37,372 nt of DNA, from IMG/VR virus record IMGVR_UViG_3300031134_000639; one strand, given 5' to 3'. The stretch is from a virus (Duplodnaviria > Heunggongvirae > Uroviricota > Caudoviricetes). Made by a program: the position numbers and the translations under genes. The notes under the pieces were generated by a model. The model was not told the origin of the DNA and made no database searches. It saw only the letters and a program-made list of their open reading frames with translations. Numbering within the stretch: position 1 is the stretch's first letter; each line of letters starts with the position of its first letter. Shown here piece by piece: positions 1,031-21,306 of the stretch.

Positions 1031-1032
1031 TT

Positions 1033-2635: not shown

Positions 2636-2659
2636 GACTCTGTAGACAGGGGGAGTAAA

Positions 2660-5298: not shown

Positions 5299-5301
5299 CT
5301 A

Positions 5302-6324: not shown

Positions 6325-6331
6325 CTTTTGT

Positions 6332-6360
6332 TTGACAGCAGACTGTAAGACTGTTATTGT
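6332..6360 (+). promoter_or_regulatory. Sigma70/SigA-type promoter for a leaderless transcript
   Basis: TTGACA-N17-TATTGT (with TGn extension), then 6 nt to ATG 6367. Confidence 0.75.
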
Positions 6361-6366
6361 TGTCAT

Positions 6367-7347
6367 ATGATAAAAACTTTTTCCGCTGCCCTGAGACAGG
6401 ACCGTGAGCGGCGTGCGGAGGCTCGCTCTAATGCGCCTACCGATGATTTTAGTTTCTATCTTCTGATGGGTATAGTGGGTGTCCTGCTCACAGCTTTCGC
6501 GTATGCGGCGCTACCTGAAGGGTACAAGCTGTATTCTTTTCTGCTTTTGTTTTTGTCTGTAGTGATCTGGCGGGCTATTGTTTGTTTCGGTTTTGTTTTC
6601 AGATCTAAATTTCGTGCTGAACTAGCTAGAATGAAAGCAGAGAAAGCTTTCTCAGAGTACAAAGCTAATGTAAAAGCCCAGAAGGACCCTGTGAGTAGGA
6701 AAGTTAGGAACCCCGGCAGAATTTTTTCTCGGTCCATTGGCATGTCTTTTAAATCTGGAGAACCTTATGTAGCTTGGCCTCTCACGGCTTTTACTTTGTG
6801 GAAAAGACGCGGCGTGATTCTTGCTACCGCAAATGAAAGTTTTGCGAGCAGCCTGCATGAACATGACAGGTTGGTGTTTATTGGTGTCAGACGAGGTCTT
6901 TTTGCCAGACTATATTATTGGTTTGAAGCTCCAAGTCTCTGTGCTGATGAAAAAGAGAAACTTGTCCTTTCTGCTATGTCTATGTATGCTAATCTAAAAC
7001 TGTCTGACTCATTCTGGATGAATTTTATGAGTACTCATCAGTGGGGCACCACAACTTTTCGCCCTGAGGGCACGAGTGGAACAAGGCTTGACTTGCCAGC
7101 TTTCATGATTCGCAACCACAACACAATGTACGCTAGCAAAAGTTATCTAGCGGAAGCAGCAGATTTGCATCAACGCCTGGAGGGTGGCACTAGTTGGGTA
7201 GACACTCATAACTTCCTTTTCCATCCTCAGACGTTCTGTGACAAGCCTGAGTTTGAGGGAGTCCCTTTTTCTTATGTGAAGCAAGTTCTTGGATGTGCAA
7301 ACTTTGCTGCGCTGAATACTTTGACTAAGGATGAGGTTTCTACTTGA
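6367..7347 (+). CDS. HxHD/Hx4H family paralog 4, with two N-terminal TM segments
   Basis: HEHDRLVFIGV...WVDTHNFLFHPQTF...EGVPFSYVKQVL; colinear with 5302. Confidence 0.85.
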   Translation: MIKTFSAALRQDRERRAEARSNAPTDDFSFYLLMGIVGVLLTAFAYAALPEGYKLYSFLLLFLSVVIWRAIVCFGFVFRSKFRAELARMKAEKAFSEYKANVKAQKDPVSRKVRNPGRIFSRSIGMSFKSGEPYVAWPLTAFTLWKRRGVILATANESFASSLHEHDRLVFIGVRRGLFARLYYWFEAPSLCADEKEKLVLSAMSMYANLKLSDSFWMNFMSTHQWGTTTFRPEGTSGTRLDLPAFMIRNHNTMYASKSYLAEAADLHQRLEGGTSWVDTHNFLFHPQTFCDKPEFEGVPFSYVKQVLGCANFAALNTLTKDEVST

Positions 7348-7380
7348 GGAGTTAGCTTGACACTTCTTTCCTGTTCTACG

Positions 7381-7432
7381 CAAAAGAGTGGTGGCTACCA
7401 ACAAATTTCTGTTGGTAGCCACCACTCTTTTG
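7381..7432. terminator. Bidirectional terminator-like inverted repeat
   Basis: Perfect 23-bp arms CAAAAGAGTGGTGGCTACCAACA, 6-nt loop, between convergent genes. Confidence 0.85.
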
Positions 7433-7435
7433 TCT

Positions 7436-7669
7436 TTAGAAGCCGTGTCGTAGTGACTTCCAGACTGCCTTAAGTCGGTTCTCGTCTGGGATAGGCTCCC
7501 AGCCCATTGTCTCTCGGAATTCAGCGTAGTCTTTCCGCTGGGCTTTACCGGGGTTCATGAAGAAGAGGAAAGGAAGAATCCACAGTGGCAGAGTAATTGT
7601 TCCAATGACGAGCATACCTGCTCTGACTACCTTTTCTAGAATGTCAGATTTGTTTTCTGAGAGGGCCAT
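7436..7669 (-). CDS. Small membrane protein
   Basis: Start moved to MALSENK (SD AGGAG); one hydrophobic segment GMLVIGTITLPLWILPFLFF. Confidence 0.75.
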   Translation of the reverse strand: MALSENKSDILEKVVRAGMLVIGTITLPLWILPFLFFMNPGKAQRKDYAEFRETMGWEPIPDENRLKAVWKSLRHGF

Positions 7670-7711
7670 AGTAATTCTCCTAATGGTTAAGCTGGGCAAT
7701 AGATTACTTAT

Positions 7712-7740
7712 AGTATAGAGTCAAACAAACATATTGTCAA
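7712..7740 (-). promoter_or_regulatory. Sigma70/SigA-type promoter
   Basis: TTGACA-N17-TATACT on the minus strand. Confidence 0.8.
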
Positions 7741-7828
7741 GCCGTTCGTGCTAAAAGCGTAAGTTTTCTTTTGTTCGGACAGTAATATGTTGTTTTCTTT
7801 TTTGCTTTGCTCTTTTTATTTTTAGAAT

Positions 7829-7835
7829 ACCGATA
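7829..7835 (+). promoter_or_regulatory. ACCGATA motif upstream of pilin 1
   Basis: One of about 10 intergenic, sense-oriented CCGAT(A/T) motifs upstream of genes. Confidence 0.55.
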
Positions 7836-7897
7836 TTCATACTAGGTGAGAATATTGCTGTGTTCTCCCTTTTTCATCGAACCTCCAAGGATAATAA

Positions 7898-8668
7898 ATG
7901 TTTTCAAAGATAAAATCGTTTCAACAACAAGAGGAAGGCTTTACTCTTATTGAGCTTCTAGTCGTAATCCTCATTATTGGTATTTTAGCTGGTATTGCTA
8001 TACCTGTTTTCTTGAACCAGCAGAAAGCTGCTATCAACGCTAGTGTCAAATCTGATGTGCGCAACACTGTGTCTAACGTAAGTTTGTTCCTAACACAGTA
8101 CCCTTCCGCTGCACCTGCTAACAACACTCAGCAGACGGGGCCGACTGTTGGCGCTAACGCTAGTACAGACCCTAAGCCAGTGATTGTTGCTAGCCGCACT
8201 GACACAACTGTTGCTGTTGCTTTCAGTTCAGGTAAGTATGATGTGGAAGGCTATAACAGTAAAACTGTTTTCAAATACAACTTCCAGTCTGAGCTAGGTA
8301 AGTATGGTACAGCTAGTATTGGCGTGGTGGATACTGCTGCTATTCCAGGTGCTACTAGTGGTGCTTCCACACCTCCAGCGGCGGCGGCAGCTACCATGAC
8401 TGCTCCTACCAAGACAAGCGATCCAGCTGGCTATATTGACACTGTTTCTTGGGGTATCCCAACAGGTTACACTGCCTCTAACGTGACCTACAACGTTACG
8501 TCCACTGGAGCTAACAAGTATAACTTCCCAGGCTTGAAAACAAACAAGTTTGAAGTTAGCAAAGATGACGTTGGCTATGGTGACACTTTTGTGACTGTAG
8601 TAGCTGTTGATAGTGCAGGGAAAGAAATTGCTCGGGCAACAGGTATGGTTCAGCTTGGATATGAATGA
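7898..8668 (+). CDS. Type IV pilin-like protein 1
   Basis: Class III signal peptide MFSKIKSFQQQEEG|FTLIELLVVILIIGILAGIAIPVFLNQQ (G-1, F1, E5); beta-rich C-terminal domain. Confidence 0.92.
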   Translation: MFSKIKSFQQQEEGFTLIELLVVILIIGILAGIAIPVFLNQQKAAINASVKSDVRNTVSNVSLFLTQYPSAAPANNTQQTGPTVGANASTDPKPVIVASRTDTTVAVAFSSGKYDVEGYNSKTVFKYNFQSELGKYGTASIGVVDTAAIPGATSGASTPPAAAAATMTAPTKTSDPAGYIDTVSWGIPTGYTASNVTYNVTSTGANKYNFPGLKTNKFEVSKDDVGYGDTFVTVVAVDSAGKEIARATGMVQLGYE

Positions 8669-8693
8669 TAGGTAGTTATTAAACGATTATCAT

Positions 8694-8744
8694 AAACAGT
8701 TGAGGGGTGCCACACAAAATTTGTGTGGCACCCCTCAACTGTTT
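8694..8744. terminator. Near-perfect 51-bp palindrome between convergent genes
   Basis: AAACAGTTGAGGGGTGCCACACAAA-A-TTTGTGTGGCACCCCTCAACTGTTT. Confidence 0.85.
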
Positions 8745-8750
8745 GTTTAG

Positions 8751-10529
8751 TTATGCTTTAGCGATACCATACATTTGGTAGGGCAGTTTTTTGTCTGAGG
8801 CCTGTGTCCAACGTGTCTCATTTAAGTGTGGTACAGGTAGAGCCTCGTACTCTCCTTGTCTGTCCGCGAACATCGGGTTCAGTGTGTTGTGAGGCAGTAG
8901 CATGTTCTTGGTGGAGAAAGTCACTCGCAGGAAGGTTCTAAGGCCCGGGATGGTCTTAAGTGGTGTTCTATGCACAGCGTAGGGGTCCATCAGATATAGA
9001 TGGCCCGGTTTTACTGTGTAGATATTCTCCTCAGATGCTTGCTTGTCAAACTCTGTGAACAGCCTCTCATGAGTGTCATCTAAGTGTCCTACGAAGAACG
9101 GCTGTAGACAAAACTCTGTTCCAGGGTTTGTTGTGAGAATGTAGGAGTGAGCGCTGACTTCTTTCTCAGTGAAAGCTCCACCCTGTAAATCATCACCGTG
9201 GAAGCCTGGGAAGCGATGGGTTTTGCCTTCCTCTATTTCACGGGTGTCGTGAGTGATGTGCGCAACCTGGCTTTCATATAGCGGGTTATGGCATTTGTCG
9301 TAAGTGAAGATGCGCTCTAGGATGCCCTGAATTGGTTTTAGCTCTGCGGGCACCATTATCTCTTGACTGTCCCACCATTTCAGAGGCATACGGAGAGTGT
9401 TCGGAATTGACTGAATCTTGTTCACGTCTGCTGTTCCCAGGTCAATGGGTAGGCGAGGGTTAGTATACTTTCTTGGCTCAAACGGTTCGGTCATGTCCCT
9501 GTATGTGGGTGAGTACGGCTGAACTTTAGGATACCATCTGTCTGGCGCTGTGATTGCTTTACCTGGTGTCAACGGAGCATCATCAAAGGTTCCTATGTCC
9601 TGTTTAGCTTTGCTTCGTTCCTGTTGTACAGCCTCTTCTGTTTTCGCTGTTGGATCTACCTCAATTTTAGCGTCTAGACCGTAGTAGTCGTAGTTCACTT
9701 CTGAGTCTGGTGCACGCAACCAGTCACGAATGTCTAGCTTGAAATTTGGCTTCTCTTGTTCAAGCATCGGGTTCAAAGTGTTGAACTCAATGGGTAGCGG
9801 AGCGTTCGCTACGGTAATACGGATGAACCCACGATGGGTGTCCTCATGGATTGTAGGTGTTCGGTGGACCATATAAGCATCCATCAGGTACAGGTGTTGG
9901 CTGATGCCTTTGAAGATGTTAACATCTTTAGCTTGTTGGTCAAAGGCCTTGAAGAAGTTAGTTATATCCTCATCGTAGTGCTTGATGAAGAAAGGCTGCA
10001 TACAGAACTCTGTGGGGTTGTTTGTTGCGATAACATATGAGTGTTCTGCAAGCAGTTTCTCTTTGAATTTCCCTCCTTGGAGGCCGTCTACATGCCAACC
10101 AGGGAACCGTTGGGTCTCTTGGGCTTTAACGAAACCGTAGTCTGTGGTTATGTGAACTTCACAGTTCTCAAACTGTTCGTTGATCATGCGTTCGTACTCT
10201 AGAACCTGCATGAGGAAAGGTTGAATGGCTTTAAGCTCCTCGGGGATGTAAGCGTTTGTTTCTCCTACAGGTTTTACAGTGAGTCGTAGGACGCGAGGTA
10301 GGTGCTCTACGGCACTGATATCAAAGAAGCCTAAGTCTACAGGTAGGCGCGGGGAAGTGTAATGGTCAAAACTGAACGGTGTTGTCAGATGTGTGTACAC
10401 TGGTGACCAAGACTGGGCTTTAGGCATCCACACGTCCCTGACCTCAACCACATCCCCAGTTGAACTTATCTCAGCGGCATCGTATTGGATGTTATCCACT
10501 GTCTTGTTATCTTCTGGTTTGTATGCCAT
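8751..10529 (-). CDS. Tandem-duplicated 2OG-Fe(II) dioxygenase-like protein
   Basis: Two homologous halves, each with HxD (H146-V-D148; H444-G-D446), a distal His (VHRTP; H222, H520) and an R-x-F-x-R-x-T strand. Confidence 0.75.
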   Translation of the reverse strand: MAYKPEDNKTVDNIQYDAAEISSTGDVVEVRDVWMPKAQSWSPVYTHLTTPFSFDHYTSPRLPVDLGFFDISAVEHLPRVLRLTVKPVGETNAYIPEELKAIQPFLMQVLEYERMINEQFENCEVHITTDYGFVKAQETQRFPGWHVDGLQGGKFKEKLLAEHSYVIATNNPTEFCMQPFFIKHYDEDITNFFKAFDQQAKDVNIFKGISQHLYLMDAYMVHRTPTIHEDTHRGFIRITVANAPLPIEFNTLNPMLEQEKPNFKLDIRDWLRAPDSEVNYDYYGLDAKIEVDPTAKTEEAVQQERSKAKQDIGTFDDAPLTPGKAITAPDRWYPKVQPYSPTYRDMTEPFEPRKYTNPRLPIDLGTADVNKIQSIPNTLRMPLKWWDSQEIMVPAELKPIQGILERIFTYDKCHNPLYESQVAHITHDTREIEEGKTHRFPGFHGDDLQGGAFTEKEVSAHSYILTTNPGTEFCLQPFFVGHLDDTHERLFTEFDKQASEENIYTVKPGHLYLMDPYAVHRTPLKTIPGLRTFLRVTFSTKNMLLPHNTLNPMFADRQGEYEALPVPHLNETRWTQASDKKLPYQMYGIAKA

Positions 10530-10591
10530 ATTTAAGGTCCCCTAAGGTTGAAGTGTCATATAAATAATCGGCTTGGGAGGAGCATATTGTG

Positions 10592-10641
10592 CATATGCGT
10601 GGGAAGGCAGATGATGTATTTCTTACCTTCCCACGCATATG
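10592..10641. terminator. Inverted repeat, probable terminator of the MinD-like gene
   Basis: 16-bp arms CATATGCGTGGGAAGG / CCTTCCCACGCATATG. Confidence 0.75.
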
Positions 10642-10644
10642 GTA

Positions 10645-11667
10645 TTATTCTTTAGTCAAAATGGATGCAACTTTTTTGATGCTTGAGTTGAACTGGTTTT
10701 TTGCTTTGTAGGCTTTAGCAAGTTCGGTAGTTACACTTGCGCGTTTAACAGCTAGCTCGGTCCCTAGTGCTGCTAAAATTGTGATTTCGCTGAAGTATTT
10801 TTCTATTAGCTCTTTACCCAAAAACTGACCTGGCAGAGTCATGTTAGCAATCAGCCCAACTTGATTTAAATTGAAGCGTCTATCCGGTAATCCGTTTAGA
10901 TCCTCTTCCAACTCTTTTTTCCATCTGAACAGATGAGGCAGAGGGTTTCTATCAAGGTCTGCTACATACAGGACTGCATCTGAAATGTTTACAATGCTAG
11001 GGAATGTTTCATCTAGATAAGTTATTCCTGTGTCAACGAAAACAAATTCGTAGTTTGCTTTCAGATTAGCGAGCATGTCTACATAGAACTGGGAGGAGAG
11101 GAGATCAGCTTTTCTGTCGCTACGTTTGGGAGATAGAACAACATCTATGTCTAATGAGTTGTCGTGAATAATGGTTTTTCTGAGAGCATGAATCGTTTTT
11201 TCATCTGAAAGGTAGTAGTTCAACATAGTTGGGGTAGCTTGGCTAACGTAATAGCTCAGCTGACCATTTCTTATGTCAGCATCGACAATTATTGCTGTTG
11301 CACCAGTTTTTCTGACAGCTGCTGCAAGAGCTAAAGCGACACTAGTTTTGCCTGTTCCCCCTTGGCTTGAAGCCAAAGTTATGATACGTCCTTCACCTTT
11401 TGACGAAAAGCCTAGACCAGCAGAAGAAGCAAAACTGTCGGTTGCAGTAGCAGAAATAAGAACGTCATCTCGGATGACTCCCTGTTCTGAGAGCAGGTCT
11501 CGTAGGGTTTCTTCTGTCTGAGTGCCTTTGTTAAGGGTCAAATGGAAACCGCCTGCTTGAACGTCAGGGTCTGTGGTTGTAATATGAATGGTGTCATTCT
11601 TTTTCAGATATGACACTCGTACGTTTTCTAGGGTAACGTATTTTTTGTTTTCGTCAGTTTTTGACAT
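10645..11667 (-). CDS. MinD/ParA/CpaE-like P-loop ATPase with an extra N-terminal domain
   Basis: IITLASSQGGTGKTSVA (deviant Walker A), IIVDAD, FVFVDTG; SD AAGGA. Confidence 0.85.
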   Translation of the reverse strand: MSKTDENKKYVTLENVRVSYLKKNDTIHITTTDPDVQAGGFHLTLNKGTQTEETLRDLLSEQGVIRDDVLISATATDSFASSAGLGFSSKGEGRIITLASSQGGTGKTSVALALAAAVRKTGATAIIVDADIRNGQLSYYVSQATPTMLNYYLSDEKTIHALRKTIIHDNSLDIDVVLSPKRSDRKADLLSSQFYVDMLANLKANYEFVFVDTGITYLDETFPSIVNISDAVLYVADLDRNPLPHLFRWKKELEEDLNGLPDRRFNLNQVGLIANMTLPGQFLGKELIEKYFSEITILAALGTELAVKRASVTTELAKAYKAKNQFNSSIKKVASILTKE

Positions 11668-11724
11668 GGTTCATCCTTAAATTGTTTGGGTCTGGTTTCC
11701 GCCAGTTCGGTTGTTACATCTATT

Positions 11725-11732
11725 GTATCGGA
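11725..11732 (-). promoter_or_regulatory. TCCGATAC motif upstream of the MinD-like gene
   Basis: Reverse complement of GTATCGGA, about 57 nt upstream of the ATG. Confidence 0.5.
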
Positions 11733-11817
11733 CTACATAGTTTCACCTCTGTTTCCATGCACGGCAAGGTCAGGAACACTTTCATGATATAGTAAGGTGA
11801 ACGGATTCGGAGGGTTT

Positions 11818-12477
11818 ATGCGTCAGAAGTATAACCAAGCAGTAGTTGGGCAGAAGGTAACTGATGCTTTAGATGCCTTCAAATATGAGTCCGGTTCTAA
11901 GCTAGCTGGCACCAAGGTGTTTGCTGGTCCTGGCAAGTCAGCTTCTAAGATCGTGTGGGCTTTACACAACTTCCAAGCTTGGGTTCAGCCTGACTCTCCA
12001 GATGCTATCTTCATAACAGTGAACTCTTCTCTAGCTGAAAAGCTACATCCTCACGACTATCTTAGATACGTTGGTATCAGACACTTCGGAAACATGTACT
12101 GGTTTCAGGTTGAAGCAGAGTGCAAACTCCTCTCTTCGGAGCGCTTTGAGATAACGGAAAGGAAACTTTTCTGGTCTCGGATGAGTTCATTTGCTGTGGA
12201 GCCTACGAAACTTGAGAGCGTGTTCGCTAGACCTTGGCTTTTAGGCAAACCAGATTCTAGTACTTTTTACTACGAGCTGATAATGTCAAGTACCAACATT
12301 CAACTTGCAAATACCAAGTTGGAGTCAAAAACTCTGTCAGGGCATAGTAGTTGGGTGGATCTTCATAATCTATACTTCCACCCTGAAGTGTTCGCTGTAG
12401 ATCAGGGTATGCCTGGTGTTCCGGAGGAGCATCTTAAGAAACTGTTTGATGTACCAACTAAGCTGATAATGACATAA
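11818..12477 (+). CDS. HxHD/Hx4H family paralog 5
   Basis: HPHDYLRYVGI...AEC...WVDLHNLYFHPEVF...PGVPEEHLKKL; TGA-TATAGT at 11785-11793 and SD GGAGG support ATG 11818. Confidence 0.85.
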   Translation: MRQKYNQAVVGQKVTDALDAFKYESGSKLAGTKVFAGPGKSASKIVWALHNFQAWVQPDSPDAIFITVNSSLAEKLHPHDYLRYVGIRHFGNMYWFQVEAECKLLSSERFEITERKLFWSRMSSFAVEPTKLESVFARPWLLGKPDSSTFYYELIMSSTNIQLANTKLESKTLSGHSSWVDLHNLYFHPEVFAVDQGMPGVPEEHLKKLFDVPTKLIMT

Positions 12478-12529
12478 AATAATCTTAGCGCTACCGAAAA
12501 CTACCTCACTATTGTGGTACCATAGTAGA

Positions 12530-13360
12530 ATGAGTTCTTACTGGCCGACTATGACACGGTTCTTTGCTATGTTGCTTGGCCCAGTTCGTGATTTTGTAGA
12601 GGCAACAAAGCAAGCTCTAGGAGACATAGTTTCCCAGTTCAAAAATCCTGGTGTCACTAAAAGGTTTTTTGCTGTTCCACTCAAAATTTTTACAACTCCA
12701 TTTGTTGCTGTTGCCTCTATGTTTGAAAGCAGAGCAAAAATTAAAGCTCATGGGGTGGTAGCTGGTCTAGACAGCTTGCATACTGAAGGCAAACATCTTC
12801 ACAAATTCTTCAGGTATTGGGCTTATCTTTTTACTCTTGATCTTCTAACTAAGAAGCGGTTCTCATGGGTTGACAAGAAGTTAAGTGTCTACGACTATGG
12901 TTGGGGAACTATGATAGCTTCTCTTCACAGAGACCAGGCTAAACTTTTTCATGAGCATGACCGCATGCAATATATCCGGGTTAAACTTTTTGGGCTAATA
13001 CCGTACTGGTTCCAGATAGAAAGAAACTGTGCTGAGTCTCCTTCTTTTACTCTTAGAGCTTGCACCACCCGTTTCTGGTGGATGCTTGCCGTGGTCCATA
13101 ACTCTAAGACGTTTGACAAAATTGATTTGTCTGACCTTGAAAAGTTTTTGTTACCTCCCGGATGGGATTCGTCTCTCACCACATGGAGTGCATCAGCGCT
13201 TAGTTTAAGGCAGACTTTAGATACTTTATCTCCAGACTACGATTGGGTTGACCTACATAACCTGTATTACCATCCAAGCGTTTTCGCTGCTGACCATGAC
13301 TTTGAGGGAATCCCAGGTGAGTATGTCCGAAAGGTACTTGGAGTACCCGAAAGACTTTAG
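12530..13360 (+). CDS. HxHD/Hx4H family paralog 6 (probably leaderless)
   Basis: HEHDRMQYIRV...RNC...WVDLHNLYYHPSVF...EGIPGEYVRKVL; TGG-TACCAT-N6-ATG 12530. Confidence 0.85.
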   Translation: MSSYWPTMTRFFAMLLGPVRDFVEATKQALGDIVSQFKNPGVTKRFFAVPLKIFTTPFVAVASMFESRAKIKAHGVVAGLDSLHTEGKHLHKFFRYWAYLFTLDLLTKKRFSWVDKKLSVYDYGWGTMIASLHRDQAKLFHEHDRMQYIRVKLFGLIPYWFQIERNCAESPSFTLRACTTRFWWMLAVVHNSKTFDKIDLSDLEKFLLPPGWDSSLTTWSASALSLRQTLDTLSPDYDWVDLHNLYYHPSVFAADHDFEGIPGEYVRKVLGVPERL

Positions 13361-13381
13361 GCTGTGTCTACTGTAGACTTC

Positions 13382-13394
13382 CGTTAGACATAGA
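13382..13394 (+). promoter_or_regulatory. CGTTAGAYATAGA motif, copy 2
   Basis: CGTTAGACATAGA-GC-ATG(13397); same spacing as the copy at 1018. Confidence 0.5.
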
Positions 13395-13396
13395 GC

Positions 13397-14221
13397 ATGA
13401 GACAGCACTATTCTACGCTTACTGGCAGCTGGGAAGATTGCAGCGCTACAATACGTAAATGCCAATATGAACATCGTAATGGTAGCCTGTCCGCTCCTGC
13501 TGTCTCTTCACCGGAGAGGGAAGCTGTTGAAGCTGACAAAGCTTCTTTCTTAGACCAAATGGTCAAACTGTGGTCACCTAAAAAGTTTGATATTCCAGAG
13601 TCTTTTTCTTTAGTCACTAGCCGCACTAAGAGTAAAGAAATTCGCGTTGCTGATGCAGGTTCAACAGCTAAACGTTGCCACAGATGCAATGTCTATGTTT
13701 CTGAGGAAGAAGTTGAAACAATGTACTCGGAAGACTACAGGTGCAGCAAATGTGGTGAAAAGCCGCCCACTGGACTTGGAGTTGACACCCCCTATGTTGT
13801 TGAAATTGACCGTGGTGAAGCTGTTTTCCTAGTTGACAAGAAAGCAGCTAAAGAACGCACTTGGTATCATGCTACAATCAAGAAGGACTGGGAAGATGGA
13901 GTCCGCTCTAACAGTGTTTATGTCCACGCTGGCTCACGTGAGGCTGCGGAAGACCGCATCAAAATTGACTGGCCCAACCAAGTATTCTTCCTGTATGAAC
14001 TTAAACTGAAGAAGAACACTAAGTTTGGTGAGAACGCTTGGGATGATAACGATTTTCCGGAGACCACACATCATCCTCTTTCTGAGACAAACTCTCCTCT
14101 TGCAGCTGACAAAGTGACCTTATATGTCAACAAGTACGAGCACCCTGGGAGCGTAAGCATGGTATCTGCCCCACGCAATTTTGATGTTGTAAAGAAATCT
14201 ACAATTACGCCAAGCTTCTAG
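13397..14221 (+). CDS. Protein with N-terminal H-C-C-H module, central CxxC...CxxC zinc finger and a possible ADP-ribosyltransferase-like C-terminal domain
   Basis: HYSTLTGSWEDCSATIRKCQYEH; CHRC...CSKC; TWYHAT...VYVHAGSREAAEDR...LYELKL. The ORF is solid; the ART assignment is tentative. Confidence 0.75.
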   Translation: MRQHYSTLTGSWEDCSATIRKCQYEHRNGSLSAPAVSSPEREAVEADKASFLDQMVKLWSPKKFDIPESFSLVTSRTKSKEIRVADAGSTAKRCHRCNVYVSEEEVETMYSEDYRCSKCGEKPPTGLGVDTPYVVEIDRGEAVFLVDKKAAKERTWYHATIKKDWEDGVRSNSVYVHAGSREAAEDRIKIDWPNQVFFLYELKLKKNTKFGENAWDDNDFPETTHHPLSETNSPLAADKVTLYVNKYEHPGSVSMVSAPRNFDVVKKSTITPSF

Positions 14222-14290
14222 CACAAGAACAATCAAACTTGATTTGTGCTATAGTTGAGATACCAACTTATTTCAACTACGGAGGCAATT

Positions 14291-15001
14291 TTGTTTGAAG
14301 GGCACGAATCGGCCTTAGCTAGAGCTAACAACTTTGCGGCAAGCTATGTCCTTGGCTCAGGTAACTTAATTACCTCAAAAAAGTATCAGTTTTGGAAACG
14401 TTTAAACCAGACCAACTCACTGAAAGAAGACGCTCATGTTTGGGCGGCAGCTAACTTAAACGTTCACAAGATTGGCAACATGTTTGCTGTGACGGTAAAG
14501 AAGAAACACGGCCTCCATGACCACGACCGTCTTAAATTTGTTGGAATCAAAAGTCTTTTTAGCACCAGATGGTATGAAGTATCCCCTAGATGCGATAAGA
14601 CAGATGTTACGCCTGTGTACATTAGCAGCGAAGTAGCTCACTACGGTTTTTGGGCTGAACTTGCAAAGCACAGCCAACGTGGGTTCAACAATGACTACTT
14701 CAGGACTGAGTCTGTTGTAACTTCAACTGAGGCTGGCTTAGAAGGCTTTGTAGGCGAAGTTAAAAAGGGAAGCGACCCTGATTATCGGGTTCGTGCTGAA
14801 GGAATGCGTAGGCTCAGCCAGCTGCTACCAGAAGGTATGGGCTGGGCTAACGTACACAACTACGTGTATCACCCAGATGTTTTCACTGAAAATACTGAGC
14901 TTGAGGGTGTGCCCATGGTTTATGTGAAGCAAATGTTTAACTTGCCAGATGATGCTCAACTTCTTGCAAGCATAAAGAGCGAACAACTGGTAGCTTCATG
15001 A
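14291..15001 (+). CDS. HxHD/Hx4H family paralog 7
   Basis: HDHDRLKFVGI...PRC...WANVHNYVYHPDVF...EGVPMVYVKQM; TGC-TATAGT at 14247-14255 and SD GGAGG support TTG 14291. Confidence 0.85.
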   Translation: MFEGHESALARANNFAASYVLGSGNLITSKKYQFWKRLNQTNSLKEDAHVWAAANLNVHKIGNMFAVTVKKKHGLHDHDRLKFVGIKSLFSTRWYEVSPRCDKTDVTPVYISSEVAHYGFWAELAKHSQRGFNNDYFRTESVVTSTEAGLEGFVGEVKKGSDPDYRVRAEGMRRLSQLLPEGMGWANVHNYVYHPDVFTENTELEGVPMVYVKQMFNLPDDAQLLASIKSEQLVAS

Positions 15002-15258
15002 AGACGATGCGTCTAATCCGTACAATTCTACTGTTCCCTATTATGTTCCCTTTGGTTGTGGCTCTTGGGTTAGGTAGAATATTGCTTCGCCGTTGGTCTG
15101 TACTTAGCAGACTAACTTTTGTATTAGCTCTAGTCGGTTCTTTCTTAATATGTATACCCTATTGGGAGAGCTTAGCTACTACAATTCATTACTCTCTTGT
15201 TTACGCTTGTCTGTTCACGTTTTCCTTTGAAATTTGGAAGAAAGCTTGTAGACTCTAA
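14998..15258 (+). CDS. Small membrane protein
   Basis: ATGA overlap with the upstream gene; about 3 hydrophobic segments. Confidence 0.75.
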   Translation: MKTMRLIRTILLFPIMFPLVVALGLGRILLRRWSVLSRLTFVLALVGSFLICIPYWESLATTIHYSLVYACLFTFSFEIWKKACRL

Positions 15259-15322
15259 ATTAGGTTAGTCATGAATCACCGATATTATTAAGGAGCCAGA
15301 TAACAAGTGAGGTGATGTTAGT

Positions 15323-15580
15323 ATGAGTAACAACGAAAAACTTAACACTAAAAAGCCGAAACGCAACATCCAGCGGTTAAGCTATTGGAATCAAATTTCA
15401 ATACCTGTAGCTATCGCATATCTAATAATAGCTGTGTTCTTCACAAGCGTAATTTTCATCAACGTAGACATGAGCGAGTCCAGCTGGGTAATTTTTGTTG
15501 GATTCCCTGTTATGGTCATCATAGAGTTCTTATTTTTGTGTATAACACTGCCGTTTATCTTCAAGCCAACTAAAAGGTAA
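15323..15580 (+). CDS. Small two-TM membrane protein
   Basis: SD GAGG; two hydrophobic segments; ACCGATA at 15278-15284. Confidence 0.75.
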   Translation: MSNNEKLNTKKPKRNIQRLSYWNQISIPVAIAYLIIAVFFTSVIFINVDMSESSWVIFVGFPVMVIIEFLFLCITLPFIFKPTKR

Positions 15581-15645
15581 CTGGTTTTCTTTAAGTTACC
15601 GATACTTCTGTAGTATGCTTGAAGTATAATCTAGCGGGAGTTTTT

Positions 15646-16662
15646 GTGCTTAAAGAATTTGGTAGAGCGAGTTTCACAGGTGAGACTCTAGAGAACCGAC
15701 CAGTTGAATTTCGTGGAGTCGCCGGTAGCGCTGTCGCTACGGTCATAAACCGGGAGAACGTTCAGGCTTTGGATGGCCTGTGGAAGAACAAAGAGTTCCG
15801 TGGATGCTATATTCTGTTAGGTCCGCGAATGCTCTCCGGAGAGTACCATTTCTATGTTGGCCTTATGGGGGATGCTACTCCAGAAGAAGGTGGCAACACG
15901 TTCGCTGGGAGGATGTTTAGTCATGGAGTTAATCCTAGAACCCGTAAAGAGTTCTGGGTTACAGCTGTACTTGTCTCAGATGAGTCTCCGGGTTTCTTTG
16001 ACAGCAGCCAGGTAAAATGGATGGAAGGTGAGCTTGACCGCTTGTTCTCCAATGTTGTCGGGACCCGACGTGTGAACATTGCTCCGACTGGGGATAGGAC
16101 CACAAAGCAGGAGGCTAGGGAAGCATGCTATCCTGCTATTGAAACTCTTCTGCGGATTGTACAGATGCTTGGTTACTCTGCGACTCAAAAGCCTGTCAAA
16201 GTTGAGGAAACTATAATACCTGACTTCATACCTAATCTTCCTGCTCCCGGTGAGATACCAGTTGAAAAACTGGCTGCTCCTGGTACTTTCCTTGATGCGC
16301 AACCTGTTGTAGCCTCTTATCTTCCTGAGGTTATTGATCATGACTACAATGTGCGATATCCTGCTGGTCTTAAAGAGTCCGACAAAGCTGAGTACGCTGA
16401 TTTCTGGATGTGGCGTCAGAGAGCTATGTACGCTGAGATAGAGTCGGGAAACCGTAACGTTACTAACTCAGGTTACATACTTGGGAACAACCTGCTTGTG
16501 ACTGTCATGAAAGAGAAACCTCGTTCATTAGATCAACTTATGAACATCCAAGGCGTAAGCAAAAATCGCAGAAAGACACTTGCGCGTTACTGGGATGACT
16601 TGGATGAAGTAATTGCTATGCATTCAAAGAAGACTGGTTGGTTCGGGCGTAAAAAGTCTTAG
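15646..16662 (+). CDS. GIY-YIG-type nuclease fused to a C-terminal HRDC-like domain
   Basis: GCYILLG...FYVG...GRMFSH...KEFW...EGEL...N; C-terminus WMWRQRA...YILGNNLL...KPRSLDQLMNIQGVS; SD GGGAG before GTG 15646. Confidence 0.7.
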   Translation: MLKEFGRASFTGETLENRPVEFRGVAGSAVATVINRENVQALDGLWKNKEFRGCYILLGPRMLSGEYHFYVGLMGDATPEEGGNTFAGRMFSHGVNPRTRKEFWVTAVLVSDESPGFFDSSQVKWMEGELDRLFSNVVGTRRVNIAPTGDRTTKQEAREACYPAIETLLRIVQMLGYSATQKPVKVEETIIPDFIPNLPAPGEIPVEKLAAPGTFLDAQPVVASYLPEVIDHDYNVRYPAGLKESDKAEYADFWMWRQRAMYAEIESGNRNVTNSGYILGNNLLVTVMKEKPRSLDQLMNIQGVSKNRRKTLARYWDDLDEVIAMHSKKTGWFGRKKS

Positions 16663-16699
16663 CCAAAGACTGACAGTATGATGTATAACCCAGGACAGC

Positions 16700-17200
16700 T
16701 TATTTTTGTATGGTTGTAGTTGATGTACAAGTTGAAACAAAACCACCTGCACGGCTAGAGTAAATTAGGCGTGTTGTGTCATTGCCTCCAGAGAAAGAAC
16801 TTCTGGGAGATGCAGCTTCAATGCAGAACCACTGTCCAGGTGCCTGACCGGAGTAAACCCCAGCGTCATAAGAATGAAGACGCGTACCTTCGGAGAAGTT
16901 GAAGTCTTTGTTGAACACACCATTGTTGGTGTTCGTAAGGCCAGTGTCTCCATCGTTTCTCCAATCCCTTTGATAATCAGGGAACACAGTGTTCGGGCGA
17001 TCAACCGCATACGTGTGATATATGGTTGCTAGGTTCTTTACATCAGATTTTAATGCTGCATCGCCAGCTTTCTTTTGCTGGTTTAAGAAAACCGGAATGG
17101 CGATAGCTGCGAGGATACCAATAATGAGAATAACGACAAGAAGCTCAATCAGGGTAAACCCGGCTTCGTCTTTGCTGAAGTTGCGGAATCTTGCGAACAT
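16700..17200 (-). CDS. Type IV pilin-like protein 2 (short, with a C-terminal Cys pair)
   Basis: MFARFRNFSKDEAG|FTLIELLVVILIIGILAAIAIPVFLNQQ; WFCIEA...STCT. Confidence 0.92.
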   Translation of the reverse strand: MFARFRNFSKDEAGFTLIELLVVILIIGILAAIAIPVFLNQQKKAGDAALKSDVKNLATIYHTYAVDRPNTVFPDYQRDWRNDGDTGLTNTNNGVFNKDFNFSEGTRLHSYDAGVYSGQAPGQWFCIEAASPRSSFSGGNDTTRLIYSSRAGGFVSTCTSTTTIQK

Positions 17201-17315
17201 GAACTATTGTTACCTTAATCTCATTGGGTTGGCTTTGGCTGCTTAGGTGCAACTAATTTATTATTGTTATGCACTTGCAAGACGGCTGTGTCCGTCTTAG
17301 AGGATCTAACATTTT

Positions 17316-17322
17316 TATCGGA
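17316..17322 (-). promoter_or_regulatory. TCCGATA motif upstream of pilin 2
   Basis: Reverse complement of TATCGGA; reads TCCGATAA on the minus strand. Confidence 0.5.
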
Positions 17323-17407
17323 CTTAAGTTTGCGACTTTCATTAGATACCTAACTAGTCTTATCAAACGTTGCTATCTATAGTTGTTCATCTTCACTAAG
17401 CGTCTAG

Positions 17408-17437
17408 TTGACAAACTATCGCATAAGACTGTATGAT
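17408..17437 (+). promoter_or_regulatory. Sigma70/SigA-type promoter
   Basis: TTGACA-N18-TATGAT. Confidence 0.7.
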
Positions 17438-17477
17438 GGGTTTACATGGCAGTTATCTTTCCTCCGGAGGTGCACTT

Positions 17478-18239
17478 TTGAAGTCTTCAAGCTTAGTAGC
17501 TTTTGAATGGACGGCACTCAGCACTACGTGTGTTGTGGCACTTGTTGTATTCTTTGCGATCATGGTCTTCTTCGTTGGCACGCCATCAAGTCCCGGCCTT
17601 GTGCCTAAGTACTCTCAGCGTTTCACTAAGAAGCTTAAGTCTGATGTGAATAAGTTCTTGAGCGATTACAGGAATGGTTCTACAGCCACAGTCGTTGTCC
17701 ACTCTCATCACTTTTTCAGGGCTAAAGATGAGCGAACAACTCTTTGGGCTGAAGAAAATCTTGTTGTAGAAAAAGCTGGTCGGTTTTTTGTTGTCAGGGT
17801 TAACGATCAAGTCGGTGTTCATGTTCACTCTCACTATCATGTAAAGTTTGTTGGCGTGCGCGCTTTCCTTAGAGTACGTTGGTTTAGGACAGATTTCAGT
17901 TGCTATGATAACCAGTTTGCAACTGCTCCTGTGAGGGATATGAAAACGCCGTTCTGGGCTTATATCCAGGATAAGGTAGAGTATTTTTCAACTCACGGTA
18001 AGGATAAGTTTGCTGGTTTTAACTGCTATCAGTGGTCTACTTCTTACATGTCTGAATATGAGCATGAAGAGAAGATTAATTTTGCTCCTAATTCAGACTG
18101 GGTTGCTCTTCATGATCTGTACTGTCATCCTGACGACATTGACCCTGGACATGAGTGGGCTGACGTACCTGTGGAATTCATTAAAAAGCTGAACAACTTG
18201 CCTGACAAGGCTTACGAGTTGTTTACGTGCAGGATCTGA
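17478..18239 (+). CDS. HxHD/Hx4H family paralog 8 (divergent), with one N-terminal TM segment
   Basis: HVHSHYHVKFVGV...FSC...PFW...WVALHDLYCHPDDI...ADVPVEFIKKL; SD GGAGG supports TTG 17478. Confidence 0.8.
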   Translation: MKSSSLVAFEWTALSTTCVVALVVFFAIMVFFVGTPSSPGLVPKYSQRFTKKLKSDVNKFLSDYRNGSTATVVVHSHHFFRAKDERTTLWAEENLVVEKAGRFFVVRVNDQVGVHVHSHYHVKFVGVRAFLRVRWFRTDFSCYDNQFATAPVRDMKTPFWAYIQDKVEYFSTHGKDKFAGFNCYQWSTSYMSEYEHEEKINFAPNSDWVALHDLYCHPDDIDPGHEWADVPVEFIKKLNNLPDKAYELFTCRI

Positions 18240-18952
18240 GGCGAGCTAGCCTTTTCACCACCGACATAGTTCAGGAAGTATCTGACACCCATGACACTTT
18301 CTTCCCAGCAAATGCGGGATAGTGTCCCTGGCTTATCGTTGTCTGTTACAATGGTCCCGTCAAGACTGAAAGCAATCAGTACGCGATTGACAAATCGTGT
18401 AAGCATCTTCTTCCTATTGTTGCCAAAGTAGTAGTTACCTTTGGGCAACACGAGAGGGGCGAGGTCATACTTGTTTAATAGATAAGAGGTTGTCTTGTCA
18501 GAGTTGTAGTACTTAGCTCCTTTTTTCTCTGTCACCAAACGCTCCCGCTTTATTTCTTCAGGGCTTAGTAGGTGGAGCAAGAATTTCTGTGAGCGTAACT
18601 CTCGGTCATATGCCATAAATTTGTTCATTAGTATTGTGGCAGGCATGGGGACCCCAGAACCAGATGACGGGTTAACCTTTTTTGCGCCAAAATTAAAGGG
18701 AGACAGCTTTTTTGACAGAGGAGGCTTAAGCTGCTCATTGTATGCCTCACTAGCAACCTGTAGAAATGTCTCCAGGAAGCCTTGTACGGCATTCTGCGGG
18801 GATATGGTGTTCATTGTAAGCGCTCGTACGTACTCTTCTGGTAAGCCGTCAGCGAGCAGCTGAGCGACTTGAAGGCTGTCAGAGTTTGAAGTCAGCATGG
18901 CGTAATCCCAAAGTAGTCCTTGTTCAAGCTCAGGCTTAGGAAGAGATATCAT
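18212..18952 (-). CDS. Hypothetical protein (probably leaderless)
   Basis: 246 aa ORF; TAGACA-N17-TATAAT-N6-ATG; 3' end overlaps paralog 8 by 28 bp. Confidence 0.8.
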   Translation of the reverse strand: MISLPKPELEQGLLWDYAMLTSNSDSLQVAQLLADGLPEEYVRALTMNTISPQNAVQGFLETFLQVASEAYNEQLKPPLSKKLSPFNFGAKKVNPSSGSGVPMPATILMNKFMAYDRELRSQKFLLHLLSPEEIKRERLVTEKKGAKYYNSDKTTSYLLNKYDLAPLVLPKGNYYFGNNRKKMLTRFVNRVLIAFSLDGTIVTDNDKPGTLSRICWEESVMGVRYFLNYVGGEKASSPQILHVNNS

Positions 18953-18958
18953 AAAACA

Positions 18959-18987
18959 ATTATATCATCATTATGCATGTGTGTCTA
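18959..18987 (-). promoter_or_regulatory. Sigma70/SigA-type promoter for a leaderless transcript
   Basis: TAGACA-N17-TATAAT with TGn extension, 6 nt before the ATG. Confidence 0.75.
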
Positions 18988-18994
18988 GGTGACA

Positions 18995-19037
18995 AAAACG
19001 TGTGGTCTAAACCTCAGAAGTTTAGACCACACGTTTT
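18995..19037. terminator. Inverted repeat, probable terminator of pilin 3
   Basis: 18-bp arms AAAACGTGTGGTCTAAAC, 7-nt loop. Confidence 0.85.
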
Positions 19038-19048
19038 CCTATTTAATT

Positions 19049-20245
19049 TTATCCTGTGGTGCTGCCAGAACCATAACCTAGGTTTAGTGTTGCACTAGAA
19101 CGTGCTAGCTCAGCTCCAGCACTGTTGTAAGCAATTACTGTAACTGTTGTTGCTCCATCTGAAATTTGTCCGGCCTGTCCAATACTCTTAGGGGAACTAG
19201 TTACTCCGGTTACTGTCTGTGTGTGTGCACCCTTCATCACGATAGTGTATGTTGCTGCTGAAGTTGCAGTGTACTGCGGTGCGGTGAATCTAATGTTTAC
19301 TGCACCACCACCTGTTTGGGCTGAAGTTGGAGCAGCCATTGTCACAGCTGGACGAGTTGCTGTTGTCTGTGATAAGGACTTAGCCGCGCTGTCAACACTG
19401 AATTCTGTTGCACTCACATAGCAGCGTGCAATAACCTGGATGCTAGCCTGAGTGCTGTAAGGCAAGGATATTGCTGGCGTGCTCAAGCTAGTGCTGTATG
19501 CACTGTATGTTCCACCGTTGAATGAGTACTTGTACTGTGCTGTACCTGTTGTACAAGTTACTGCTGTCCAGCTAAAAACGTTGTTTGAGCTAGAGTAGTT
19601 AATAGGGGTGCTGCTCATAGTTACTGTAGCTGGCGCACTAGGTGGTGCAACAACCGGTGCTGCGGGCGGTGTGGTTGTTGGAGGTGTCGTAGGCTCAGTT
19701 GTTGGCGGCGTGGTTGGCGTTGTTGTCGGAGGAGTTGTAGGCTCAGTTGTAGGGGGAGTTGTAGGCCCTGTTGTTCCTCCGGAACCTGGGTTAGTAGCTC
19801 CAGGAATCTTCGTAGTGTCAATAATACCGGAAGGAGTCTCGGTGTATTTTCCAGTGGAAGAAGAGAAAGAGTAGGTAAAGTTTGTCTTAGAGTTGAAGCC
19901 TTCTACCGTGTAGATACCAGTTGAGAAAGCGACACCAACTGTTGTGTTGTCATCTGTAATCACAAGTTTTGGTGTCAAAGCAGTGTCTGCATTTAACCCG
20001 GACGCGGAGCCTGTTCGTTGAACATTGTTGGATGCTCCAGGAGAAGTTTCAGTATTGAAAAGGTTCACGTTCGTTACAGTGTTACGAACATCTGATTTGA
20101 CCCCTGCATTAATTGCAGCCTTCTGTTGGTTTAGGAACACTGGAATTGCTATACCAGCTAGAATACCGATGATGAGGATCACGACCAGAAGTTCGATTAA
20201 AGTGAAACCGTCTTCATGGGAGTGGGTATTAATTTTATTGAACAT
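19049..20245 (-). CDS. Type IV pilin-like protein 3 (long; Pro/Thr linker and extra FN3-like domain)
   Basis: MFNKINTHSHEDG|FTLIELLVVILIIGILAGIAIPVFLNQQ; TTPP/TTEP repeats; FSWTAVTC...YKYSFNGG...IQVIARCY FN3-like segment. Confidence 0.92.
   Translation of the reverse strand: MFNKINTHSHEDGFTLIELLVVILIIGILAGIAIPVFLNQQKAAINAGVKSDVRNTVTNVNLFNTETSPGASNNVQRTGSASGLNADTALTPKLVITDDNTTVGVAFSTGIYTVEGFNSKTNFTYSFSSSTGKYTETPSGIIDTTKIPGATNPGSGGTTGPTTPPTTEPTTPPTTTPTTPPTTEPTTPPTTTPPAAPVVAPPSAPATVTMSSTPINYSSSNNVFSWTAVTCTTGTAQYKYSFNGGTYSAYSTSLSTPAISLPYSTQASIQVIARCYVSATEFSVDSAAKSLSQTTATRPAVTMAAPTSAQTGGGAVNIRFTAPQYTATSAATYTIVMKGAHTQTVTGVTSSPKSIGQAGQISDGATTVTVIAYNSAGAELARSSATLNLGYGSGSTTG
19664..19774 (-). repeat. 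Coding tandem repeat of 4-aa (12-bp) TTxP units in pilin 3
   Basis: TTGP-TTPP-TTEP-TTPP-TTTP-TTPP-TTEP-TTPP-TTTP-P (aa 158-194); synonymous positions differ between units. Confidence 0.9.
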
Positions 20246-20397
20246 CTATACTTCCGTGTTGAAATGAGCAGAATAAAACATTTGTTATTCTATACTATTA
20301 TCTGCCTATCAACTTTCAAAATAAAATTACACCTTGTCAAATATAGCCAACTCTAGTACTTTGAGGGACTACTGACAACATTTATTTAACTTTTGGA

Positions 20398-21156
20398 CTA
20401 TCTCGGTGTAGTTCCTTCAGCTGTCCCAAGAATTAGTACTGAACTTACCCGCCCTATCTCTTCTCCATTGCTGCCAAATGCAATTACCAAAACCGTTGTT
20501 GGCTCTTTGGACAAATTAGACTGTGAGCCAAGAAACAGCTGATTTGTAGTCACAGAAGTATAACTTCTCTCGTGCCCACCTGTCATCTTTATATTGTAGG
20601 ATGCGACGGGTGGTTGTGCGGCACCCCATTTTATAGTCGACTGTTGGTCAGAGTTTACAGAGAGTGTAGAAGGAGTCATAGAAGCAGTTGGAGGAACAGG
20701 ATAGTTAGGTATTTTGTTTGTGTCCAGAATACCACTTGGTGTCTTTTCATATTTGCCGCTGGCTGACGAGAAACTGTATGTAAAGTTTGTCTTAGAGTTG
20801 TAACCTTCTACAGTGTATTTATTAGGATTAAAAGCCACCCCAACTGTTGTGCCGTTATCACTTATCACAAGCTTGGGCACATTACTACTTGGCGTTGCAG
20901 TACTTGGTGTTGCCGAGCCAGTTTGCTGTACATTATTTGCTGAAGATGTTGTTGAAACCTCTGTGTTAAACAGGTTAACATTTGTTATCGTATTGCGAAC
21001 ATCTGACTGCACACCTGCATTAATAGCTGCCTTCTGTTGGTTAAGAAAAACAGGTATTGCAATGCTAGCAAGCACACCAATGATAAGAATGACAACAAGA
21101 AGTTCAATAAGCGTAAAACCGTCTTCATGTTTTTGGTTAGAAAACTTAACAGACAT
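20398..21156 (-). CDS. Type IV pilin-like protein 4 (tandem paralog of pilin 3)
   Basis: MSVKFSNQKHEDG|FTLIELLVVILIIGVLASIAIPVFLNQQ; colinear with pilins 1 and 3. Confidence 0.92.
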   Translation of the reverse strand: MSVKFSNQKHEDGFTLIELLVVILIIGVLASIAIPVFLNQQKAAINAGVQSDVRNTITNVNLFNTEVSTTSSANNVQQTGSATPSTATPSSNVPKLVISDNGTTVGVAFNPNKYTVEGYNSKTNFTYSFSSASGKYEKTPSGILDTNKIPNYPVPPTASMTPSTLSVNSDQQSTIKWGAAQPPVASYNIKMTGGHERSYTSVTTNQLFLGSQSNLSKEPTTVLVIAFGSNGEEIGRVSSVLILGTAEGTTPR

Positions 21157-21306
21157 TTTTCCTCCTGATAGGACGCTGGTAAAATACCTTTACATATAGT
21201 AAATATCCGCTGTATAAACCAATTATGAAAAATAGCTTTATCAAACATCATCAAGTGCCTCTATAAGAGTCGAAAATTGCAGAATACTACTAAGATGGTA
21301 GAGCAT

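Follow-up and report, generated by a model that had tools for sequence, protein, structure and literature searches.

Type IV pilins that carry extra folded modules have reportedly been surveyed by Raynaud et al. in 2021, and in Streptococcus sanguinis the modular pilins PilB and PilC display a vWA module and a lectin module, respectively. The IncI1 plasmid R64 makes a type IVb thin pilus whose single pilV gene is rearranged by Rci at sfx repeats, while the pilS loci of Neisseria are promoterless, 5′-truncated cassettes that act through tracts of DNA identity with pilE. What has been known so far on mobile elements is phages with single pilin genes that tamper with host pili, and plasmids such as R64 with type IVb thin pili. 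The phage-encoded pilins are P-FimU of Pseudomonas F10-like phages and P-PilA of Xylella prophages and virulent phages; a decoy mechanism has been demonstrated with FimU encoded by a prophage and suggested for the PilA-like proteins of phages (PMC12952977). In cells, sigma-28/WhiG promoters with the −10 consensus GCCGATAA drive the pilus genes of Rubrobacter and Actinoplanes, which build secretin-less type IVa pili (PMC8325347). The present analysis concerns a window of 37,372 nucleotides (nt), that is the whole stretch of DNA analyzed (record IMGVR_UViG_3300031134_000639, G+C 44%), which belongs to an uncultivated phage-like replicon of about 885 kb. An earlier note, made from the letters of this window, had recognized four scattered type IV prepilin genes and likened them to an antigenic-variation or decoy repertoire. 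These genes probably encode substrates of a type IVa pilus machine located on the same replicon, and would serve as accessory adhesive subunits of the element's own pilus.

Four window pilins and a repertoire of at least 24

The four open reading frames (ORFs) were confirmed at their positions and encode proteins of 256, 166, 398 and 252 amino acids (aa), hereafter pilins 1 to 4. Pilin 1 lies on the plus strand (7898-8668), while pilins 2 (16700-17200), 3 (19049-20245) and 4 (20398-21156) lie on the minus strand; pilins 3 and 4 are in tandem and pilins 1 and 2 stand alone, exactly the layout that had been described. Each protein starts with a charged leader of 13-14 residues ending in Gly (residues 1-13 in pilin 3; 14 aa in pilin 1, where the G−1 codon occupies 7937-7939), followed by F-T-L-I-E and a hydrophobic helix, and G−1, F+1 and E+5 are kept in all four. 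Scores of 31.4-35.8 bits with PF07963 and 29.1-33.0 bits with TIGR02532 place the four proteins above the curated cut-offs of 21.2 and 16.3 bits, respectively; pilin 1 reaches 31.4 and 29.1 bits, pilin 2 reaches 35.8 bits with PF07963, and pilin 4 exceeds both cut-offs. AlphaFold2 models of pilins 2 and 3 show the pilin fold, a ∼50-residue α1 helix and a β-sheet. In pilin 3, a helix (residues 16-66) and four strands are predicted, with a predicted local distance difference test (pLDDT) score above 90 over residues 20-140; in pilin 2, a helix (residues 17-67) and a sheet have a mean pLDDT of 83, and the best match of this model in the PDB is Thermus PilA4 (6xxd), with further pilin matches to 3sok and 1oqw. 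By their profiles and predicted fold, the four ORFs encode genuine type IV pilins that look processable, as the earlier note had proposed.

Pilin 2 has the canonical short form of a type IVa pilin and carries a C-terminal pair of cysteines (C126 and C158), each at least 90% conserved in alignment A2. The closest named sequences are PilA-like proteins from Aeromicrobium, Kineococcus and Nocardioides (40-44% identity), with Tessaracoccus also among these relatives. Pilins 1, 3 and 4, and not pilin 2, are predicted to be modular type IV pilins, in which a pilin module of ∼140 aa is followed by an extra folded module. The linkers between modules differ: in pilin 4 a short linker, almost none, precedes one FN3-like domain; in pilin 1 an Ala/Pro/Thr-rich linker leads to one C-terminal FN3-like β-sandwich; and in pilin 3 the α1 helix (14-66) and head (67-150) are followed by a disordered Pro/Thr-rich linker of ∼70 aa (∼151-222) and two putative FN3-like domains. 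The C-terminal β-sandwich is modeled with a pLDDT of ∼90 (300-390 in pilin 3), and the domain that precedes it in pilin 3 (∼223-298) with lower confidence. Foldseek matched the pilin 3 model to tandem FN3 pairs (E 2e-4, probability 1.0). The order of parts is that of known modular type IV pilins, a class III signal peptide and N-terminal pilin module and then a displayed extra module, here one or two FN3-like domains. Unlike known modular pilins, the present ones belong to a family of at least 24, are dispersed from the machine on a phage-like element of ∼885 kb, and in pilins 1 and 3 have long linkers rich in Pro, Thr and Ala.

Among the four window pilins, 29-32 of the 32 positions of the N-terminal helix are identical. 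The description given earlier, an invariant helix with divergent heads, holds for the helix and for pilin 2, whose head alone differs from the other three; the heads of pilins 1, 3 and 4 are instead paralogous, with 46-64% identity. Their shared C-terminal domain is less alike, with ∼29% identity between pilins 3 and 4 and between pilins 1 and 4, and 17% between pilins 3 and 1, so that pilin 4 matches pilin 3 at 64% in the head and 29% in the C-terminal domain. In a tree of pilin modules, pilins 1, 3 and 4 form a clade (92/80) within a group of 18 element pilins (94/86) that includes those of the type IV pilus (T4P) operon, and pilin 2 clusters together with two further pilins of the element, adjacent to cellular actinobacterial pilins. 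As judged from this tree, pilins 1, 3 and 4 appear to have arisen by radiation inside the element.

At least 24 pilin genes are carried by the element, and the four of the window represent one sixth of them. Five more (224-344 aa) form a cluster 9-16 kb beyond the window end, three lie at 48-69 kb of contig k141_970874 of ERZ27247443, two resembling pilin 2 lie at 151-171 kb of contig k141_624373 of the same assembly, and ten (119-176 aa) form a tandem array in the T4P locus. Fourteen pilins are dispersed, versus ten in the operon array. Other dispersed pilins also bear modules: one of the three on k141_970874 has a DUF285 (E 1e-54), and weak sub-threshold matches were obtained to CBM_4_9 (E 0.025) and WxLIP_HBD (E 1e-4).

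Each copy is under purifying selection. Across 19 compared pilins, hardly any of the 32 positions that follow the cleavage site vary, but identical helix residues share the same codon in only ∼45% of cases (8-14 of ∼30 among the four window genes), which argues for long-term selection on each copy and not for recombination. With synonymous sites in the helix saturated, gene conversion would find no long stretches of identical sequence to act on. In three other studies, contigs span 15 kb around the four pilins with the same gene order and 98-99% DNA identity; for the window pilin genes, strains sampled in different studies show 98-100% identity, and pilin 4 has a 99% identical copy in another sample. 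Indels between strains inside the pilin genes are all in frame and all in linkers, the other indels of the 15-kb stretch being intergenic; they comprise a 3-nt deletion in the Ala run of pilin 1 (position 8378, one Ala codon) and 6 nt in the Pro/Thr repeat of pilin 3 (19711-19715). Between lineages, conservation decreases from the helix (98%) to the head (73%), the linker (58%) and the FN3 domains (47-50%). This gradient is as expected for exposed distal modules and reflects divergence over long times, with nothing suggesting switching within a population.

Several peculiarities were observed within and around the repertoire. Five of the 24 pilins have Ala in place of Gly at −1 (EDA|FTLIEL; L005:13571-15788 and L021:4641-6020, 7464-8459 and 10001-10987) and form a well-supported clade (100/100); their cleavage may be less efficient or rely on another peptidase. 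At the end of the pilin array, a 122-aa protein (L001:15404-15772, plus strand) has a lipoprotein-type signal (LGGC) in place of the prepilin leader and a body resembling the heads of neighboring pilins (ending ...FTYTFDSSTGSY), and looks like a membrane-tethered pilin head. Proteins with a lectin-like Laminin_G_3 domain or a Pel9A-like β-helix adjoin dispersed pilins at two loci (L021:414-1820 and 8523-9830; L022:4487-6244 and 7419-8837); they could be partners that bind or degrade polysaccharides, or phage fiber or spike proteins. A gene of the adenylosuccinate-synthase family lies amid the five-pilin cluster (L005:12195-13448).

A pilus machine and promoter-like motifs on the same replicon

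An exact-protein look-up placed pilin 3 at ∼561 kb of an ENA contig of 624,949 bp, so that the window spans ∼542-579 kb of this contig. Contigs of 603, 663 and 885 kb (one of 885,359 bp) carry these protein clusters too, and the ENA contigs of 624,949 and 259,059 bp sum to 884 kb. About 162 kb of the element (∼17% of the genome) was read, including the whole superlocus that joins a type IV secretion system (T4SS), the T4P locus and a Tad locus. The T4P locus encodes a complete secretin-less type IVa machine, consisting of PilM, PilN, PilO, PilT, PilB, a second PilT-like ATPase and PilC, after which comes the ten-pilin array. The Tad locus follows directly, with RcpC-like, TadZ, TadA, TadB, TadC and TadE/G-like proteins and a further ATPase. 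Directly upstream of pilM lies a Tcp/VirB4-type T4SS module (L025:2519-13674 and L031:10001-21407; JGI contig Ga0540631_0000001, ∼272-294 kb) with a 784-aa coupling-protein-like gene, TcpC, TcpE, an 823-aa VirB4-like AAA_10 ATPase (E 5e-68), a 956-aa protein and an M23 hydrolase. Tad, T4P locus and T4SS are contiguous on the 603-kb contig. The Tad locus is found at 5-27 kb of the 624,949-bp contig that holds the window, and a 663-kb JGI contig carries both the T4P locus and the five-pilin cluster; machinery and window pilins therefore belong to one replicon. The statement that the four genes are not in an assembly operon is correct insofar as no assembly gene adjoins them, but the same replicon has a full type IVa machine with ten tandem pilins, a Tad locus and a T4SS.

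The superlocus is not peculiar to this replicon. Its order (hydrolase, ABC, PilMNO, PilT, PilB, PilT2, PilC, recombinase, pilin array) is kept in a relative whose PilB is 57% identical, and PilB proteins with 52-68% identity occur on contigs of 0.2-1.0 Mb, those with 52-60% identity on contigs of 0.69-1.0 Mb. These data point to the existence of a family of such elements. The nearest homologues are located on this element and on related giant contigs and not, as the earlier note had allowed for, in syntenic chromosomal pil operons. The closest cellular counterparts are the type IVa pili of Actinomycetota such as Rubrobacter and Actinoplanes (PMC8325347), which resemble the present system in having PilB, PilT, PilC and PilMNO and no secretin, a near-identical pilin N-terminus and a CCGATA −10-like element, with PilB and PilA relatives at 40-51% identity. 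In contrast to these cellular pili, the present genes reside on a giant mobile element, in a superlocus with a T4SS and a Tad locus, and comprise a ten-gene array plus 14 dispersed pilins that use a second, pilin-specific motif.

This second motif is bipartite (TTGAYA-N27-31-C[ACG]GAT[AT]). It has 11 copies in the 162 kb, all of them located upstream of dispersed pilin genes at distances of 10-152 nt, compared with a mean of 1.6 and a maximum of 5 copies in shuffled sequences. On the minus strand of the window, TTGACA-N30-CAGATA (20299-20340) ends 53 nt upstream of pilin 3 and TTGATA-N29-CGGATA (21204-21244) ends 47 nt upstream of pilin 4. Pilin 1 is preceded at 68 nt by a CCGATA element (7830-7835, plus strand), which resembles the core of the sigma-28/WhiG −10 consensus and may have the same function; the corresponding −35 element, TAAA, is not evident here. 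CCGATA or CCGATT is also present upstream of most separately transcribed pilins of the T4P operon, and CCGATA precedes the head gene of a pair encoding multi-pass membrane proteins. The reader of the pilin promoters could be the host WhiG or an element-encoded protein. A candidate of the latter type, a sigma-like protein of 393 aa with weak Sigma70_r2/r3 matches, is encoded just after the Tad locus (L019:16256-17437).

Two further window genes have CCGATA elements. One, at ∼11726-11731, lies before a TadZ/CpaE-like ATPase of the ParA family (10645-11667, minus strand; Pfam AAA_31, ParA and CbiA) that is a paralogue of the TadZ-like protein encoded in the Tad locus of the element (30% identity over 233 aa, E 6e-34). 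The other lies 40 nt upstream of a sortase-type, cell-wall-anchored surface protein with an LAYTG signal (33254-35557, plus strand), in which two FN3 domains and an Excalibur domain were recognized; because of this element, the LAYTG protein may be co-regulated with pilin 1. The location of the pilus locus between T4SS and Tad, together with an adhesin sharing a promoter element, suggests a contact apparatus for transmission.

From these elements a mechanism can be proposed. The prepilins would be inserted in the membrane, where a prepilin peptidase, probably the PilD of the host, would cut after Gly−1 and methylate Phe+1. The PilB/PilC/PilMNO platform of the element would then polymerize the subunits and the PilT ATPases would retract the filament. 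Given an essentially identical α1 helix, the 24 or more pilins could pack into one filament core, of which the short operon pilins would supply the bulk and pilin 2 and its relatives would be host-like, canonical, disulfide-bonded subunits. Pilins 1, 3 and 4 would be sparse adhesive subunits whose FN3-like modules, carried in pilins 1 and 3 by flexible linkers rich in Pro, Thr and Ala, are held off the shaft to attach to surfaces or cells. What the element would probably gain is contact with surfaces or between cells that aids its spread.

Within the window, the pilin genes are interleaved with a paralogous family (2624-3268, 3376-4047, 5302-6324, 6367-7347, 11797-12477, 12512-13360, 14255-15001 and 17433-18239) characterized by the motifs HEHDRL.F.GV and W.D.HN..YHP..F and a C-terminal P.EYV, some members having N-terminal membrane helices; the one member searched (5302-6324) has no Pfam match. 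Most genes of the superlocus and its flanks also lack a Pfam family.

Nature of the replicon and competing explanations

In keeping with the description of the surroundings as a phage-like genome, the window that holds the dispersed pilins also encodes rIIA (29310-31583) and rIIB (31694-33103), both on the plus strand (29310-33103), with matches to phrog_612 (E 2.7e-81) and phrog_609 (E 6.4e-50). This pair is the clearest phage-type marker in the window. The best rIIA matches among isolated phages are all in actinobacteriophages (of Microbacterium, Arthrobacter, Streptomyces and Rhodococcus), the nearest rIIA-bearing phage being Zooman, whose terminase is split and atypical; a search of 72,556 plasmids with rIIB gave only 12 matches, all partial. 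Beside the five-pilin cluster, a vWA protein has full-length relatives in Mycobacterium cluster C phages. A T4-type RNA ligase 1 (Rnl1) and RecA are encoded near the superlocus, and PHROG-type proteins are also present. Rnl1, RecA and RecX (L031:668-1966 and 5987-7045; L005:19528-20136) make up a set of recombination and repair functions that is more complete than is usual for mobile elements.

The most likely host is an actinobacterium, probably from among the plant-surface Actinomycetota, to judge from the LAYTG signal, the named relatives of pilin 2, PilB and VirB4, and the rIIA matches in actinophages. The nearest named relatives of PilB are in Sporichthya, Modestobacter, Nocardioides and Microbacterium (46-51% identity). 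The best plasmid relatives of VirB4 are on Nocardiopsis plasmids (35-37% identity), together with a Nonomuraea record of 11.85 Mb that PLSDB lists as a plasmid. Window DNA was encountered again in metagenomes of the phyllosphere, of straw and of plants, produced by several studies. The phages of INPHARED gave no nucleotide match to window positions 1-20000 and no tblastn match to pilin 3, scans of IMG/VR with pilin 3, PilB and rIIA gave no relative, and PLSDB gave no match to pilin 2. With PilB, the phage collection yielded bacterial contigs entered as phages or fragments lacking annotation, except for a 28% match in a Dolichospermum jumbo phage. A scan of GTDB genomes with PilB gave only distant matches (34-45% identity) in assorted phyla, which reflects the peptide-pattern method and is uninformative on the host.

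Three kinds of replicon were considered. That it forms virions is the favored interpretation, at better than even chances; that it is a conjugative or other giant element is possible but clearly less probable; and that it is a cell is most improbable. No tRNA was found in 121 kb of the element. A reduced bacterial genome, such as that of Saccharibacteria, was rejected on account of this absence and of that of any translation or core housekeeping gene among the called genes of the ∼162 kb.

Some observations weigh against the assignment of the four genes to an own pilus of a phage-like element. The ∼162 kb of sequence read revealed no gene for a capsid, portal, terminase or tail, and phage-type genes (rIIA/rIIB, Rnl1 and PHROG-type) coexist with a T4SS of the conjugation type. 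A Peptidase_A24 profile built from five bacterial PilD proteins, true members of the family, found no prepilin peptidase in the element loci read (best E 0.23), the loci intended as positive controls holding no PilD either; processing would therefore need an unseen gene or the host. Pilins 1 and 2 have no bipartite motif. The FN3-like assignment is tempered by the low confidence of the middle-domain model and by low overall template modeling (TM) scores in Foldseek, the latter because the pilin 3 model has several domains.

The alternative that survives best, though it is unlikely, has the same assembly mechanism as the element-encoded pilus proposed here and differs in the nature of the replicon and the purpose of the pilus. 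By analogy with the thin pilus and PilV tip variants of R64, the replicon would be a giant conjugative element and not a virus, and type IV pili with interchangeable adhesive pilins would stabilize mating contact for the adjacent T4SS. The presence of the coupling-protein-like gene, TcpC, TcpE, the VirB4-like ATPase and the M23 hydrolase directly upstream of pilM argues for it, as do the actinobacterial affinities of the plasmid relatives of VirB4 and the serine-recombinase-like gene located between pilC and the pilin array. The lack of virion genes goes in the same direction but carries little weight, because only ∼17% of the genome was examined. R64 likewise combines a mobile-element type IV pilus, an adjacent conjugation system, alternative adhesive subunits and a nearby recombinase. 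Unlike in R64, however, the variants are separate complete genes, the machine is of type IVa and monoderm, no shufflon repeats were found, and the recombinase has Pro in place of its catalytic Ser. Moreover, no relaxase was recognized in the T4SS module or the flanks of the superlocus, and rIIA/rIIB with their actinophage affinities and near absence of rIIB from plasmids, Rnl1, and the vWA protein with its cluster C relatives all point to a phage.

Slightly less likely still is a decoy function or superinfection exclusion, in which pilins of the element would enter the type IV pili of the host itself, replace or cap their subunits and block pilus-dependent phages. Phage-encoded pilins with such a role are documented (PMC12952977), and like P-FimU and P-PilA the present pilins are on a phage-type genome and have an N-terminus compatible with host processing: leader and α1 of the window pilins almost equal the cellular actinobacterial consensus (alignment A2), so that host machinery could process and incorporate them. 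That no prepilin peptidase was found in ∼162 kb, and that pilin 2 groups with cellular actinobacterial pilins, would also fit. But a phage with P-FimU or P-PilA has a single pilin, uses only the host machine and blocks rival phages, whereas this element has its own machine, a Tad locus and at least 24 pilins. A complete assembly and retraction machine with ten operon pilins would be needless for a decoy, the number of pilins, many with large modules, exceeds the needs of receptor masking, and the superlocus is conserved in distant relatives. The element is not of the single-pilin, host-dependent type, although it may use the host machine in addition; the decoy half of the initial proposal keeps its basis in the N-terminus and the missing peptidase and loses likelihood in view of the element's own machine.

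For antigenic or phase variation, the other half of that proposal, the comparison with Neisseria and the recombinase gene are relevant. As in pilE/pilS, many pilin sequences keep the N-terminal part constant and vary in the exposed one; unlike pilS, every copy is a complete gene with its own start, most have a promoter-like motif, synonymous sites are saturated, and none is a silent cassette. The small gene between pilC and the array encodes a MerR-type helix-turn-helix and a serine-recombinase-like domain, and is conserved in two distant relatives (L001:9265-9852 and L034:16460-17071, both on the minus strand). Its catalytic motif is YSRVST in a relative and YSRVPT in the genome of the window, where the recombinase is therefore devoid of the nucleophilic Ser. 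A search of the pilin array for an invertible segment or shufflon inverted repeats revealed none, only terminator-like hairpins between genes. A filament surface varied by switching or recombining genes, to which the many paralogues with an invariant N-terminus, the fast divergence of exposed modules between lineages and the recombinase-like gene beside the array might have pointed, is thus highly improbable in the face of ∼45% codon identity without gene-conversion tracts, complete genes of which many have their own promoter motifs and terminators, 98-100% identity between strains of different studies, a recombinase lacking its nucleophile and the absence of an invertible segment in the array.

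Significance for giant mobile elements

Modular pilins, single phage pilins and plasmid thin pili were known already; a phage-like replicon that brings along an entire type IVa machine of the monoderm kind, besides at least 24 pilins, would be something different. Such a combination was not found in isolated phages and is not mentioned in a 2026 review of jumbo phages (PMC13282480). The largest phage genome in this review is 735 kb (PMC13282480), and the replicon of about 885 kb, if it is a phage, is larger than this maximum.

It may be suggested, tentatively, that phage-like replicons of 0.5-1.0 Mb in Actinomycetota carry a conserved contact toolkit, made of a type IVa pilus of their own, for which two dozen pilins, many of them tipped with adhesive modules, could be used interchangeably, together with a Tad pilus, a conjugation-type T4SS and a sortase-anchored adhesin, all under pilin-specific promoters. 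With it they would re-equip the surface of their host and might spread by contact, alone or beside virions. If true, the line between giant phage and conjugative element would be blurred, and giant mobile elements would install complete surface organelles on their hosts and not merely modify them. This would be relevant to the spread of such elements on leaf surfaces, to the maximum size that phage-like genomes can reach and to what modular pilins do.

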